Source: a virus (Duplodnaviria > Heunggongvirae > Uroviricota > Caudoviricetes). From it: a stretch of DNA of 56,715 nt. Position numbers and translations under genes: made by a program. A model generated the notes under the pieces. The model ran no database searches. It worked only from the letters and a program-made list of their open reading frames with translations, and had not been told where the DNA came from. Where the stretch lies: IMG/VR virus record IMGVR_UViG_2622736468_000005; one strand, given 5' to 3'. Below are positions 33,884 through 52,184 of this stretch, in pieces; positions within the stretch are counted from its first letter, which is position 1; every line of letters starts with the position of its first letter.

Positions 33884-33918
33884 GCAGTTTACTCACATCT
33901 GACAAAATCAATATAAAC

Positions 33919-34140
33919 AGCCCCTCCGGAGAGGGGCTGGAGAGTGGCGCTATGTGCCATTGCATGGTGCCGGGTGCCTCCCGGTGAATTCAGTACCAGC
34001 ACCTGAATCCGCGATTATCCCATATACCTACTCGCTGATTACCCCTCCGCACAGGGGGATTCACCATGCGAAATTTTTTAACAAACTTCCCGCCGGCCAG
34101 ACAATAATCGCCAGCCTGAATTATGAGCAACGTGGCATTT
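33919..34140. repeat. repeat element copy A (~220 bp) beginning with perfect 20-bp palindrome agcccctccggagaggggct
   Basis: Shares palindrome and several conserved blocks (gcatggtgcc..cctcccggt.aattcag, gggggattcaccatgcga, ttttaacaaa, cagacaat) with copy B; compensatory changes in stems. Confidence 0.55.
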
Positions 34141-34381
34141 TACGGGAAAACTGTTTTCTGCAGTAAAAAGGCCCGCCGGAGCGAGCCTGGAAGGATAGCG
34201 GTCATGTGATGCCGGTTTCCCGGTAACTCAGCATCGGTATCTGAGTCAACGTTTTCTCTACTGGGTCATTTCCGATACGTTCCGCCTTCCGGCAGACTTT
34301 CATCACGTCAGAAAATATAGCACCCTGAGTAACAGGACAGTACTCAGAATTCAGGAAACTGTGACACATCCTGCACAGAAA

Positions 34382-34600
34382 AGCCCCTCCGGAGAGGGGC
34401 TGAAGTATAGCCTAATTTCTGTCTGTCGCATGGTGCCAGGGGCCTCCCGGTAAATTCAGCCTGTCTACTGAATTTGCATGTTCTCTGGATCATACACTTT
34501 GCCAGATGCCCCGCCGCTGAGGGGGATTCACCATGCGATGTAATTTTTAACAAATTCTCCGGCAGCCAGACAATCATCAAGCTGTGGAATTGTGAGGTAT
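34382..34600. repeat. repeat element copy B (paralog of 33919..34140)
   Basis: Same palindrome and conserved blocks; hairpin aaattcag-cctgtcta-ctgaattt. Confidence 0.55.
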
Positions 34601-34829: not shown

Positions 34830-34906
34830 TGGACCGCCATCGGGGACTTGAACCCCGCGCAGCCAGCTTCGAAGGCTGGCGCTCTATCCCGATGAGCTAA
34901 TGGCGG
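34830..34906 (-). tRNA. tRNA-Arg (anticodon read as TCG)
   Basis: 77-nt cloverleaf on minus strand: acceptor CCGCCAT/ATGGCGG, D-arm GCTCATCGGGATAGAGC, anticodon loop CTTCGAA, T-arm CGGGGTTCAAGTCCCCG, 3' TCCA. Confidence 0.7.
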
Positions 34907-34913
34907 TATGTGA

Positions 34914-34989
34914 TGGTGGCCCTTGCTGGATTTGAACCAGCGACCTGGCGATTATGAGTCGCTCGCTCTCACCACTGAGCTAAAGGGCC
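34914..34989 (-). tRNA. tRNA-Ile2 (anticodon CAT, ileX/ileZ-like) or tRNA-Met
   Basis: 76-nt minus-strand sequence GGCCCTTTAGCTCAGTGGTGAGAGCGAGCGACTCATAATCGCCAGGTCGCTGGTTCAAATCCAGCAAGGGCCACCA; 7-bp acceptor stem, CTCATAA loop. Confidence 0.8.
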
Positions 34990-38132: not shown

Positions 38133-38459
38133 ATGACTAAAAATACTCGTTTTTCCCCCGAAGTCCGTCAACGGGCAGTCCGTATGGTTCTGGAAAGTCA
38201 GAGCGAATATGACTCACAATGGGCGACAATTTGTTCCATTGCTCCAAAGATTGGCTGTACGCCGGAGACTCTGCGTGTCTGGGTTCGCCAGCATGAGCGG
38301 GATACCGGGGGCGGTGATGGAGGGCTCACCACCGCTGAACGTCAGCGTCTGAAAGAGCTGGAGCGTGAAAATCGTGAACTGCGCCGCAGTAACGATATCC
38401 TTCGCCAGGCTTCCGCTTATTTTGCGAAGGCGGAGTTCGACCGCCTCTGGAAAAAATGA
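38133..38459 (+). CDS. IS629 transposase OrfA (HTH)
   Basis: 108-aa [25 protein letters not shown]...; slippery A AAA AAT at its end. Confidence 0.85.
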
Positions 38460-39346
38460 TGCCACTGCTGGATAAGCTGCGTGAGCAGTACGGGGTCGGA
38501 CCGCTATGCAGCGAACTGCATATTGCCCCGTCAACGTATTACCACTGTCAGCAACAGCGACATCATCCGGATAAACGCAGTGCCCGTGCGCAGCGCGATG
38601 ACTGGCTGAAGAAAGAGATACAGCGCGTATACGATGAAAATCACAAGGTATACGGTGTGCGTAAAGTCTGGCGTCAGTTGTTACGGGAAGGTATCAGAGT
38701 GGCCAGATGCACTGTGGCACGTCTCATGGCGGTTATGGGACTTGCCGGTGTTCTCCGGGGTAAAAAGGTCCGTACGACCATCAGCCGGAAAGCCGTTGCC
38801 GCAGGCGACCGCGTAAACCGTCAGTTCGTGGCAGAACGACCTGACCAGCTGTGGGTGGCTGATTTTACTTACGTCAGCACATGGCAGGGCTTCGTCTATG
38901 TGGCGTTCATCATTGATGTGTTTGCCGGATACATCGTGGGGTGGCGGGTCTCATCGTCCATGGAAACGACATTCGTGCTGGATGCACTGGAGCAGGCGTT
39001 ATGGGCCCGTCGACCGTCCGGCACGGTCCATCACAGTGATAAAGGTTCTCAGTATGTATCGCTGGCCTACACACAGCGGCTTAAGGAAGCCGGATTACTG
39101 GCATCAACAGGAAGTACAGGCGACTCGTATGACAACGCGATGGCGGAGAGCATCAATGGTCTTTACAAAGCGGAGGTAATACACCGTAAGAGCTGGAAAA
39201 ACCGTGCAGAAGTGGAACTGGCCACACTCACGTGGGTGGACTGGTATAACAATCGACGATTGCTGGAAAGGCTGGGCCATACTCCTCCGGCAGAAGCAGA
39301 AAAAGCTTATTATGCTTCCATCGGAAACGATGATCTGGCAGCCTGA
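38456..39346 (+). CDS. IS629 transposase OrfB (DDE integrase domain)
   Basis: 296-aa ORF overlapping orfA in -1 frame; DDE-type catalytic core. Confidence 0.85.
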
Positions 39347-40891: not shown

Positions 40892-41998
40892 TCAAACAAT
40901 CTGGAAAATATTTCTTGGATTTGTAATAGGTCTGTTGATGGAGAACAACTCACGAATTAAATCTTGGCTCAAGCCAGTTTTCATAAGAATTCTTAGCCAG
41001 GTTGCATCATCCAGCATTTCAATCGCCTCGGCCAGCATGCCGGGTTCTTCAGGGCGCAAAAGTTCATCACCAGGTTCAACTCTCGTATACCCTCTGGAAT
41101 TAAGATGCATATAGCCAGTTCTTGCCTGTTCCTGGGTCAATAAGCCTAATGCGCTGGCTCGATAAATACACATTTTAAGGCTGATTTTCCATCTAAGTTT
41201 AAATTCAACCAGAGCATTCCAGTCGAATTGCTTACCTCGTATTCGTGGAAATTCTTTAATGAAAGATAACCTGGGAACTAATAAGGCGCTCGAAAAGTGA
41301 TCGGCTTGTGATTCCGTAAGTTTATCACCTGTCGTTATGCCCTCATGCATTACTAAATGCCCTAATTCATGACCTAAATCAGAGCGAAATCTACATATGC
41401 TTTTTTTAACATTGTTCCTGATGATAACAGGCCTGTTATTGTGAACAGTAAAAGCATCAACACGATCATCGACTCCCGTAACATGCGCAACGATTACCCC
41501 TAAACTCTCCGCCAATTTAACCATTGATGATATAGGGCCAAGACCTAAATTCCAGGCACGGCGACAATCTTCTGCCACTCGCTCAATATCATTCGGAGTA
41601 AGTAATTCAGCCCCTGGGTGCTCCGGTATGTTAACGTCAGGAAATTCGATTTCACCTTCAACAGCAGAAATTATAATATTAAGAATCTCAGCCCTGGCCA
41701 ATACACTATTAGTCAGCGTTTGAGTCCTGGACTTCTTACTCCGAAAATGGCAGACATCACTTTCCAGAGCGTATTTTCGTTCAGTAAAAAGAAAACTGGA
41801 CTTAATCATAAGCGCTGAAGATATTAACTCAAGACATTGCTCCGATGGCCTGCACCCCTTCTCCAGTTTGCTAACGAATTGCTTTGTCTTGCCAATTTTT
41901 TCGGCTAACTCTTCACAAGAAAGCCCAACAGCCATTCTCGCTAGTTTGAGCTTATCACCCCGATACTCAGTGAAGTTATTCACCTGATGTTCCATCAC
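40892..41998 (-). CDS. HTH-XRE DNA-binding domain fused to ImmA/IrrE-family zinc metallopeptidase (M78, HEXXH)
   Basis: 368-aa ORF; N-terminal HTH (LKLARMAVGLSCEELAEKIGKTKQFVSKLEKG), central HEXXH (SDLGHELGHLVMHEG); AT-rich gene. Confidence 0.7.
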   Translation of the reverse strand: MMEHQVNNFTEYRGDKLKLARMAVGLSCEELAEKIGKTKQFVSKLEKGCRPSEQCLELISSALMIKSSFLFTERKYALESDVCHFRSKKSRTQTLTNSVLARAEILNIIISAVEGEIEFPDVNIPEHPGAELLTPNDIERVAEDCRRAWNLGLGPISSMVKLAESLGVIVAHVTGVDDRVDAFTVHNNRPVIIRNNVKKSICRFRSDLGHELGHLVMHEGITTGDKLTESQADHFSSALLVPRLSFIKEFPRIRGKQFDWNALVEFKLRWKISLKMCIYRASALGLLTQEQARTGYMHLNSRGYTRVEPGDELLRPEEPGMLAEAIEMLDDATWLRILMKTGLSQDLIRELFSINRPITNPRNIFQIV

Positions 41999-42626
41999 TG
42001 CTCACATCCAAATCTTTATCCTTCGTACGCCGACGAAGAGGCACCTTATTAATCTCCGCTTCGTCAGGGAGTGTGTTATAATCAAGAGGCATAAGCGGCA
42101 TCGATGCTGTAGATTGATGAGAAACTATACTAATCTGAGCACCATAAGTATTAAATCCAACAAGAGCTACCTCCCAACGAGGCAGTGTGGACTCTAATTC
42201 ACCATCGCCCTCTTCGGATAAAAAAGGCTCAGCTATGACTCGCCATGTAATATCTTGCTCAGCCTCAACATCACCAAACAATGAGAGCTGCTCATACTCT
42301 ACTTTATTTCGACGCAGACGATGTTTCTTTTTGGGGTTATTAATGCAATCTTTGGTAAATTGTAGCGGAACTTTATTTAAAGCAACTACATAGTCCAACC
42401 CCTTGGAAATCATCTCAAGGCCAGGAATTGCATCTTCATTTTGAATAAGATGATTTCTGACCCAATCATAAGCCCTTACACCTTCAGACCAGTTGCTGTC
42501 TAATGCGTGCTTATGATAGTACAGCTGCTCAAGTACGTTAGCGATCTCCGCCAACAAGTGGCGAACATAGTTTTCAGCAAGATAAGGTTGAAATTCCCAA
42601 CAAGGAGCTAACTGATTTTCATTCAT
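41976..42626 (-). CDS. hypothetical protein, upstream partner of HTH-ImmA/IrrE gene (unknown family)
   Basis: 216-aa ORF overlapping the next gene by 23 bp (operon); promoter-like TTGACA...TATGTG upstream; AT-rich. Confidence 0.5.
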   Translation of the reverse strand: MNENQLAPCWEFQPYLAENYVRHLLAEIANVLEQLYYHKHALDSNWSEGVRAYDWVRNHLIQNEDAIPGLEMISKGLDYVVALNKVPLQFTKDCINNPKKKHRLRRNKVEYEQLSLFGDVEAEQDITWRVIAEPFLSEEGDGELESTLPRWEVALVGFNTYGAQISIVSHQSTASMPLMPLDYNTLPDEAEINKVPLRRRTKDKDLDVSSDGTSGE

Positions 42627-42701: not shown

Positions 42702-42722
42702 CAAAAACCCGCCGAAGCGGGT
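42702..42722 (-). terminator. intrinsic terminator after hokD; same hairpin sequence as 40866..40886
   Basis: Minus-strand aacccgcttcggcgggttttt; identical stem-loop to the downstream copy. Confidence 0.55.
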
Positions 42723-42791
42723 TAAGTGCGGGTGCGTTGAGGATGCCTGGCACATCAGAGGTGGCGGGAGATTACTCCCCCGCCGGGTCTC

Positions 42792-42947
42792 TTACTCCTC
42801 AGGTTCGTAAGCTGTGAAGACAGCGACCTCCGTCTGGCCGGTTCGGATTCGTACCTCGCAGAGGTCTTTCCTCGTTACCAGTGCCGTCACAATGACGGTT
42901 AAACAGATGACGATCAGGGCGATTAGCATCGCCTTTTGCTGCTTCAT
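42792..42947 (-). CDS. hokD: Hok/Gef-family small membrane toxin (HokD/RelF-like)
   Basis: 51-aa ORF MKQQKAMLIALIVICLTVIVTALVTRKDLCEVRIRTGQTEVAVFTAYEPEE with AAGGAG RBS; track ORF 42792..43004 carries an in-frame N-terminal extension. Confidence 0.8.
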   Translation of the reverse strand: MKQQKAMLIALIVICLTVIVTALVTRKDLCEVRIRTGQTEVAVFTAYEPEE

Positions 42948-43238
42948 AGCCTGCTTCTCCTTGCCTTTCGGCACGTAAGAGGCTAACCTACGTGTGTAGA
43001 GCATAGATATGGCCTCAGATTAATGTTAAGCGTCTTGCCGGACGCGTAATGTTAACTGGGGCTTTTCTCTATCTGCCTTTTGGTGTTCATGCCTGAGACA
43101 GATAGCCTCAAGCACCCGCTGCAATTCTACTTAACTCTCCTTTTCCCGCAAACCGTTTTTATCCCCAGCGGCAAATCGAATACACCACCAGCGCCACCGC
43201 CATCGCAATTCCTACCGTTGTTAATGCTTCAGGCCAGG

Positions 43239-43583
43239 TCATCGTAAAATATCCTCCACGCTTATCAGTCCGTTCCGCTCCAGATAACTCATCGCCTTAT
43301 CCGGTAATTTGCAGTCTGGCTTCGCTTTCCTCAGTTGCCAGGTTAACTGCTTTACCAGCATGGTTAACTCATCGACCAGACGCTGATATCCCACTGGTTT
43401 GTATTCATGCAATTTACCGGCTGGCTCTGCTGCCAGCGATACCAGTGCGATTTCCAGAACAGCAATATCCATCTTATATGTGCGGATGATGTCATGGTCG
43501 ATTGTGCCCGGTATGCACAGTCTCTGTGCTTCAATAGTCTCCTCTGCGTGAGCTATTAACTGCTCTCTGGTAAAAGTCGTCAT
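43239..43583 (-). CDS. hypothetical protein (nin-region)
   Basis: 114-aa ORF; N-terminus MTTFTREQ... is paralogous to next small ORF. Confidence 0.4.
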
Positions 43584-43750
43584 GCCGTAGCCCCTTCTTG
43601 ATATTTTTCAAACCAGAACACAACCGGCTCTGCTTCCAGCGATGCCAGCGCAATCCGTGCCAGTTCCATTTGTTCACCACGGGTAAGCCCGTTTTCAAGC
43701 GGGTTTTTAATGAACAATTCAATACGTTCTTTGGTAATAGTGGTCATGTG
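43583..43750 (-). CDS. hypothetical small protein (55 aa)
   Basis: [62 protein letters not shown]; shares MTT-T...IA.ASLEAEP pattern with 43239..43583. Confidence 0.3.
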
Positions 43751-52126: not shown

Positions 52127-52184
52127 TTTCTGGTGACGTTTGGCGGTATCAGTTTTACTCCGTGACTGCTCTGCCGCCCTTTTT
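52127..52184 (+). ncRNA. dicF: DicF small RNA (cell-division-inhibitor sRNA)
   Basis: Sequence tttctggtgacgtttggcggtatcagttttactccgtgactgctctgccgccc + T-run matches DicF as I recall it; immediately upstream of dicB. Confidence 0.6.

Follow-up and report, generated by a model that had tools for sequence, protein, structure and literature searches.

A prophage-borne hok gene of the hokD subtype with hok/mok/sok regulatory elements in its leader

The 56.7-kb window, by which is meant the whole stretch of viral DNA that was analysed, contains a single copy of hok. With the sequence around it, this gene very probably makes up a hok/mok/sok cassette of the hokD subtype, a type I toxin-antitoxin system that is complete in itself and that a lambdoid prophage has in its early-right (nin-like) region as accessory cargo. 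[quoted passage not shown] It is an ordinary intact hok/mok/sok locus, and both its subtype and its kind of location are familiar. An earlier note on this DNA had found no Sok-like antisense unit by eye and had left the restraint of the toxin unclear, a puzzle that arose because the RNA elements are unannotated and the atypical copy of Escherichia coli K-12 served as the reference.

Toxin gene, mok frame and conserved leader

The hok coding sequence (42792-42947, on the minus strand like all of the genes noted in this region) encodes 51 amino acids and matches Pfam family PF01848 (HOK_GEF) with 82.9 bits against a cut-off of 22 (E=1.2e-23). Public sources name the exact match HokD, the protein is identical to HokD of K-12, and the equivalent gene of E. 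coli 042 bears the RefSeq label hokD, all in agreement with the first description of the toxin as HokD/RelF-like. By this match it belongs with the small Hok/Gef membrane toxins, a class defined by about 50 residues, an N-terminal transmembrane helix, a conserved cysteine and a periplasmic tail. Its SD sequence AGGAG (42961-42957) is located 9 nt before the hok ATG and overlaps the -35 element of the candidate Sok promoter, as in the R1-type locus.

A mok-equivalent ORF of 70 amino acids (42792-43004, minus strand) is in frame with hok and consists of a 19-residue extension followed by Hok. Its ATG (43004-43002), placed from the ORF list and by homologous position, has the SD sequence GAGG (43016-43013) 8 nt upstream, and both elements show conservation of at least 90%, up to invariance, in an alignment of 32 loci. 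Databases call an identical 70-residue protein 'Hok family toxin' and use 'regulatory protein MokC' for near-identical proteins of the same 90% cluster; there is also a match to PHROG 251, 'MokW-like host killing' (2.8e-33). By analogy with R1, translation of hok would be coupled to this overlapping upstream frame.

[quoted passage not shown] The sequence TACGAA is invariant in the 32 loci, and the 3-bp stem that flanks the loop covaries (C-G in 20 and U-A in 10 at one pair; G-C in 17 and A-U in 12 at another). K-12 hokD is edited by TadA at the Tyr47 site, which is thereby recoded to cysteine (PMC5630033); such editing is plausibly a further brake on full Hok activity.

The leader of the hok mRNA (42942-43117, minus strand) was recognized in an Rfam scan of the whole window as a full-length match to RF01794 ('sok antitoxin, CssrC'; model positions 1-157 of 157), with 117.1 bits (gathering score 59; E ~1e-27). 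The model is oriented along the hok-sense strand, from the mRNA 5' end GGGUGCUUGAGG to the hok AUG; therefore, despite its name, it describes the hok leader, of which Sok is a partial complement. The leader contains a tac box, a 5' hairpin, the Sok-target hairpin, the mok SD sequence and start codon, and the hok SD sequence. The search of the hok leader for mok and sok elements that the earlier note had proposed gave a mok frame and a candidate Sok unit, and this conserved, structured region speaks against the absence of a Sok-like unit.

A candidate hok promoter (43124-43151, minus strand) was read from the sequence, with a -35 element TTGCGG (43151-43146) and a -10 element TAGAAT (43129-43124) separated by 16 nt, and it would initiate transcription 6 nt downstream, at the predicted mRNA 5' end. 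In related loci a similar -10 block (GTAGAA, GTATAA or GTATAT) is found at a fixed distance ahead of GGGYGCUUGAG. The 5' end was set by the start of the Rfam model and by alignment with the R1-type locus, and the predicted full-length hok mRNA extends for about 416 nt (42702-43117, minus strand) from the conserved GGGUGCUUGAGG to the T-run of an intrinsic terminator (42702-42723, minus strand), which was found by a terminator scan as AACCCGCUUCGGCGGGUU followed by UUUG, with its hairpin at 42723-42706. Directly after the hok stop codon is a 3' stem-loop, GGCGGGGGAG-UAAU-CUCCCGCC (42763-42784, minus strand), identified by folding and covariation: its eight pairs join alignment columns 342-349 with 361-368, and one pair has a two-sided change in one locus and another in five loci. 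By analogy with R1 (PMC9841398), this conserved stem-loop would become the hairpin that ends and stabilises the processed mRNA.

Long-range pairing, the predicted Sok unit and the proposed mechanism

Closure of the 5' end on the 3' end by tac-fbi pairing is the hallmark of the inactive full-length hok mRNA (PMC9841398). The tac box of the window, GGGUGCUUGAGG (43106-43117, minus strand), is complementary to the fbi box, CCUCAACGCACCC (42730-42742, minus strand), with one bulged C. When the 416-nt mRNA is folded (minimum free energy -167.2 kcal/mol, z -6.94), its 5' end closes on its 3' end, nucleotides 1-11 pairing with the fbi box, and folding of the truncated mRNA makes a rearrangement at the 5' end visible. 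The tac-fbi duplex of the window is predicted at -21.5 kcal/mol, compared with -14.4 +/- 2.1 kcal/mol for shuffled tails, none of 200 of which reaches it.

From a sample of 53 loci encoding HokD relatives, with one genome per species, 29 whose leaders are intact (Escherichia, Kluyvera, Photorhabdus and Pantoea) were put to the same test, and in all of them the duplex is more stable than those of shuffled tails. At pair 4:403, U-A is present in 22 loci and C-G in eight, a compensatory change that separates Escherichia and Kluyvera (U-A) from Photorhabdus and Pantoea (C-G); position 12 alternates in a compensatory manner between G-C and A-U. Because the start of the VT2-Sakai locus was mis-set and one row (L048) was misaligned in the 32-locus alignment, covariation was computed instead on 31 trimmed transcripts, for which RNAalifold found 68 consensus pairs, 16 of them with two-sided changes that cover tac-fbi, the Sok-target hairpin and the 3' stem-loop. 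That the regulatory elements have been retained in different genera, with compensatory substitutions, points to purifying selection acting on the RNA structure.

On the plus strand, a candidate Sok promoter (42961-42989) was placed by positional homology, with a -35 element TTGCCT (42961-42966), a 17-nt spacer and a -10 element TAACCT (42984-42989), and aligns with TTGCGC-17-TATCCT of the R1-type plasmid locus. Its complement, AGGTTAGCCTCTTAC, is conserved in hokD-type loci, and other loci have the variant TAATCT. The predicted Sok RNA of about 76 nt (42996-43071, plus strand; 5' end +/- 3 nt) was placed by positional homology to the R1-type locus and by its fold. Its first 15 nt would be a single-stranded 5' tail that spans the mok start; a long hairpin (43011-43063) covering the mok SD sequence would follow, and then UUUUCUCU. 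The fold of this candidate, which has a U-rich tail, is predicted at -31.8 kcal/mol (z -4.65), and none of 200 shuffled sequences is as stable. On the sense strand, the Sok-target stem covaries at pairs 61:101 (A-U in 21 loci, G-C in 10) and 65:96 (G-C in 16, A-U in 13). Alignment with R1-type and hokC-type loci puts the tac box, the Sok -35 and -10 elements, the mok SD sequence and ATG, and the hok SD sequence at homologous positions, with the mok SD sequence held in an AGCCCC/GAGGC hairpin. Both the hok and the Sok promoter escaped a generic sigma-70 consensus scan. Since this rule would also miss the Sok promoter of the R1-type locus, the scan is uninformative here, and the promoter positions are those given by homology.

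With these elements in place, restraint of the toxin can be proposed along the lines established for R1. A weakly transcribed full-length hok mRNA would be locked by tac-fbi pairing, with ribosomes and Sok both shut out. Slow 3' trimming would take off the fbi box and allow the leader to refold, exposing the mok ribosome-binding site, on which hok translation would depend, together with the Sok target. Abundant but unstable Sok would pair with the mok start region and direct the mRNA to decay by RNase III. If transcription stopped, through loss of the element or through host shut-off induced by a phage, Sok would decay first, and Hok would be made and would depolarise the inner membrane. For a prophage, such a cassette may serve maintenance or phage exclusion; hok/sok of R1 is cited in a passage of PMC11951105 as excluding phage T4.

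Caution about activity is called for by promoters that depart from the consensus, by a Sok -10 element TAACCT in place of the TATCCT of the R1-type locus, and by the behaviour of chromosomal copies. According to a passage of bioRxiv 10.1101/2025.08.07.668861, Pedersen and Gerdes found that hokA, hokB and hokC of the chromosome mediated neither post-segregational nor rifampicin-induced killing, and so an intact sequence is no proof of an active killer. The cassette of the window might likewise look intact yet be functionally quiescent, either held off tightly or endowed with a weak promoter, and persist by hitch-hiking, as the off-consensus hok and Sok promoters and the need for Tyr47 to be edited before Hok has its second cysteine might suggest. 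Such quiescence seems rather unlikely, since all of the regulatory elements have been kept across genera with compensatory changes, the cassette is found almost everywhere in E. coli and in temperate phages, and, when Sok is absent, chromosomal expression of R1 hok kills the cell (PMC9841398).

The K-12 relBE-hokD arrangement and the genes around the cassette

The earlier note had held that the genes preceding hok are not RelB/RelE-like, and had named relBE remnants as evidence that would overturn its view. A tblastn search of the whole 56.7-kb window with RelB and RelE of K-12 found neither the genes nor remnants of them (best E 0.3 and 1.6). The implied baseline, that a relBE-hokD operon is the norm, turns out to be inverted. 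The K-12 gene (hokD or relF, in the cryptic prophage Qin) differs from that of the window at two of 156 nt of the coding sequence, and its 3' UTR has the same stem-loop, fbi box and terminator. Near-identity with strain MG1655 starts no more than 14 nt ahead of the hok ATG and continues through the 3' UTR; farther upstream, the K-12 sequence is the 3' end of relE, which abuts the hok SD sequence in place of the hok promoter, tac box, mok and Sok promoter. The limit of homology at -14 implies that K-12 relBE-hokD contains a truncated, leader-less copy of hok, whereas the locus of the window has the full leader, no relBE, and hence not the relBEF arrangement of K-12. On this comparison, relB-relE-hokD of K-12 reads as a rearranged exception and the window as the intact, ancestral-type cassette. 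Pedersen and Gerdes in 1999 reportedly also regarded K-12 hokD as a truncated copy. A relE-hok junction of the K-12 kind is present in one Kluyvera genome (L030) as well. In a passage of PMC5630033, the inactivity of K-12 hokD is credited to Pedersen and Gerdes.

Two small genes are located upstream of the cassette on the same strand: p114 (43239-43583, minus strand), from the ORF list, which encodes a 114-residue prophage protein matching phrog_660, and p55 (43580-43747, minus strand), which encodes 55 residues. The relationship of their N-termini, MTTFTRE in p114 and MTTITKE in p55, was noticed from the sequence at the outset and holds: the proteins are 33% identical over about 54 N-terminal residues (pairwise E=1e-5) and have phrog_660, phrog_60, phrog_5117 and phrog_3323 in common. 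Both begin with the module M(T/S)T(I/F)T(K/R)E...ALxSL(E/A)AEP that also heads DUF551 proteins, and neither possesses the C-terminal DUF551 domain (no Pfam match for either). By its similarity to EaA of phage P22 (86% identity to the N-terminus, residues 1-44), its matches to phrog_3323 and phrog_60, and its name 'Eaa protein' in UniRef, p55 is the N-terminal module of EaA/DUF551-type lambdoid proteins standing alone. The C-terminus of p114 differs, and resembles the ends of N15 gp45 and ST64B Sb31/32 (ead-like).

Between p114 and the candidate hok promoter is a hydrophobic ORF of 27 codons (43159-43242, minus strand), the start of which overlaps the p114 stop codon as ATGA, with GGAGGA, a strong SD sequence, 9 nt upstream. 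It was found at full length in 91 phage records with 55-96% identity, always starting on the last four bases of the preceding gene. The ORF mostly lacks annotation, as in five of the records that were inspected, E. coli 042 included. Many of the differences between copies are synonymous; compared with phage Av-05, nine codons differ synonymously and six non-synonymously. N15 gp45.1 was considered as an annotated homologue and rejected, its translation being unrelated. The 90% cluster that holds the 27-residue sequence has as its representative a 185-residue DUF551 protein without the peptide; this grouping was set aside as a probable artefact of clustering.

Because p55, p114 and the 27-residue peptide adjoin hok in the same orientation, and because the 27-codon ORF accompanies hok in Stx2 phages, one or more of them might be thought to take the part of RelBE, restraining or working with Hok as a protein antitoxin or modulator. 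Such a role is scarcely credible: homologues of p55 and p114 (EaA/DUF551-type) occur in many phages without hok, the 27-codon ORF is likewise present where hok is absent (as in BP-4795 and Av-05), none of the three matched any Pfam, NCBIfam or PADLOC family, toxin-antitoxin and defence families included, and a complete RNA-based control system is already there. Since hok cassettes elsewhere have different upstream genes, no functional tie of p55 or p114 to hok was seen, and their sequences mark the two as commonplace accessory ORFs of the lambdoid EaA/DUF551 type, for which no connection with hok control could be detected.

The co-orientation of hok with the upstream early genes, and a scan that found no same-strand terminator in the ~500 nt before the promoter, speak for another possibility: that hok is expressed mainly by read-through of the early-right operon on induction, as a phage-timed gene for host killing or assistance of lysis rather than as an autonomous toxin-antitoxin system. 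However, the cassette has its own promoter-like site, conserved 5' end and terminator; the same cassette in another operon context in Stx2 phages, and on plasmids, argues for autonomy; and a transcript extended at its 5' end would not have its tac box at a free end. Read-through as the main mode of expression is therefore very improbable, and the self-contained RNA-regulated cassette is the preferred explanation.

Directly downstream of the hok terminator is a RosmerTA defence pair (40892-42626), composed of RmrT (41976-42626; PADLOC E=4.6e-25) and RmrA (40892-41998; PADLOC E=6.2e-105), the latter with HTH and M78 peptidase domains; the RosmerTA system was described in bioRxiv 10.1101/2022.05.11.491447. 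It is a speculation of low probability that the 27-residue membrane peptide, hok/sok and RosmerTA, just downstream of ea-type genes, make up a functionally connected islet of defence or cargo genes. If they did, Hok/Sok and RosmerTA would be joint modules of abortive infection, and the 27-residue peptide would have been co-mobilised with hok in the prophage of the window and in Stx2 phages.

Relation to known hok systems and distribution

Among the closest known systems is hok/sok (parB) of R1, which was compared through an R1-type IncFII locus (L003) encoding a Hok identical to that of R1. Both loci match RF01794, and from the 5' end both have in the same order a GGxGCUUGAGGCU tac box, the Sok-target hairpin, and a GAGG mok SD sequence with ATG. 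They also have in common a Sok promoter over the hok SD sequence, a Hok/Gef peptide, the UACG motif, a 3' hairpin and an fbi box. They differ in that Hok of the window is only 42% identical to R1 Hok, the Sok/sokT hairpin of the window has about 18 extra nt that make an additional GC stem, and the Sok -10 element is TAACCT rather than TATCCT. The R1 system is plasmid-borne and the cassette of the window prophage-borne; post-segregational killing is at most a putative activity of the hokD subtype.

Another is the mok/hok locus of Stx2 phages (VT2-Sakai and 933W-like; 'MokW' and the gef homologue orf74), in which mok and hok are annotated. It is about 92% identical to the window over the 27-codon ORF and the whole cassette, and its Hok ends in VDYESEK rather than TAYEPEE. 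In the Stx2 phages the cassette is situated at the end of the early-left (ea) region beside DUF551/orf75 and a YgiW-family gene, in contrast to the nin-like region of the window. The hokC (gef)/mokC/sokC locus of E. coli has the same leader family, in-frame mok, tac-fbi logic and TadA site as the window, but lacks the 18-nt hairpin insertion, and its Hok is 80-82% identical.

Many E. coli chromosomes (042, ABU 83972, NCTC86 and others) contain a 1151-bp region of the window with 100% identity. In E. coli 042 it is part of a lambdoid prophage, flanked on one side by the DUF968-RusA-Q block and on the other by ea-type small genes that follow the O/P replication genes. Of 5426 complete E. coli genomes, 4212 have the leader (coverage of at least 80%), with a median of two places per genome, and no annotated features lie under it there. 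The cassette is also found on plasmids. Enrichment of hok in prophages, and toxicity of the HokD peptide, have been reported (bioRxiv 10.1101/2025.08.07.668861).

As a textbook system in a common location, the cassette has little discovery value. Its significance is in how such loci are read: PGAP labels the hokD coding sequence alone, leaving the leader, mok and Sok unannotated, and when the relBE-hokD layout of K-12 is used as the yardstick, an intact cassette can be mistaken for an orphan toxin. Comparison of the window with K-12 makes it directly visible that the reference copy of K-12 is the degenerate one.

The hok leader and reading frame

In Escherichia, Kluyvera and related genera, loci of the hokD type have an insertion of approximately 18 nt in the Sok/sokT hairpin (at about 43030-43050 on the minus strand of the window; columns ~70-90 of the multi-locus alignments A2 and A3), in contrast to hokC-type, Photorhabdus and R1-type loci, which lack it. 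The insertion forms an extra GC stem, GCGUC...GACGC, of which compensatory forms (ACGUC...GACGU) occur in other genera. The TadA A-to-I editing motif UUACGAA (42804-42810, minus strand), which contains the Tyr47 codon (42807-42809), is unchanged in 32 hok loci, and the 3-bp stem that closes its loop covaries in the hok loci alignment (C-G/U-A, G-C/A-U). The site matches the reported Tyr-to-Cys recoding site of K-12 hokC, hokD and hokE.

A search with window positions 42948-43130 found the hok leader in 4212 of 5426 complete E. coli genomes, and in none of the genomes listed from that search does RefSeq (PGAP) annotate any feature under the leader/Sok region. In Rfam, the 'sok' model follows the hok-sense strand, an orientation that can mislead strand assignment.

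The same truncated relE-hokD junction as in the Qin prophage of K-12 (locus L002) is present in a Kluyvera sp. genome (L030), with RelE 97% identical, and a degraded junction is found in another E. coli locus. Thus, the leader-less arrangement itself has spread or persisted across genera.

A small overlapping ORF

A hydrophobic ORF of 27 aa (43159-43242, minus strand) has the Shine-Dalgarno sequence GGAGGA, and its start codon overlaps the stop codon of the gene before it (ATGA). Full-length versions with 55-96% identity were found in 91 phage records, always starting in the last four bases of the upstream gene, which may be the 114-aa ORF p114, orf75, DUF551 or Av05_00123; downstream there is hok in some cases and none in others. 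The ORF is not annotated in E. coli 042, BP-4795, VT1-Sakai, Av-05 or POCJ13. Synonymous changes are common (nine synonymous versus six non-synonymous codons against Av-05). There is an open frame antisense to it as well, though without a start codon.

Prophage surroundings

An ALIL frameshift pseudoknot (Rfam; 38414-38530) and two overlapping plus-strand ORFs of 108 and 296 aa (38133-39346) indicate that an insertion sequence of the IS3 family separates the RosmerTA pair from the RusA/Q genes. Compared with E. coli 042, the tRNA and hok lie ~1.3 kb further apart here, which is consistent with an insertion, possibly in the DUF968 gene. Other Rfam matches, namely DicF sRNA (52128-52179, plus strand), two copies of STnc100 close to the late genes (33909-34097 and 34373-34566), two tRNAs (34833-34989) and an IS009 element (2062-2260), the last three on the minus strand, mark a prophage of Qin/lambdoid type.

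Directly 3' of the hok terminator lies a RosmerTA anti-phage defence pair (40892-42626, minus strand), consisting of RmrT (216 aa, 41976-42626; PADLOC E=4.6e-25) and RmrA (368 aa, HTH_3 and Peptidase_M78 domains, 40892-41998; E=6.2e-105). Therefore, hok/sok adjoins a known abortive-infection-type system in a prophage accessory region.
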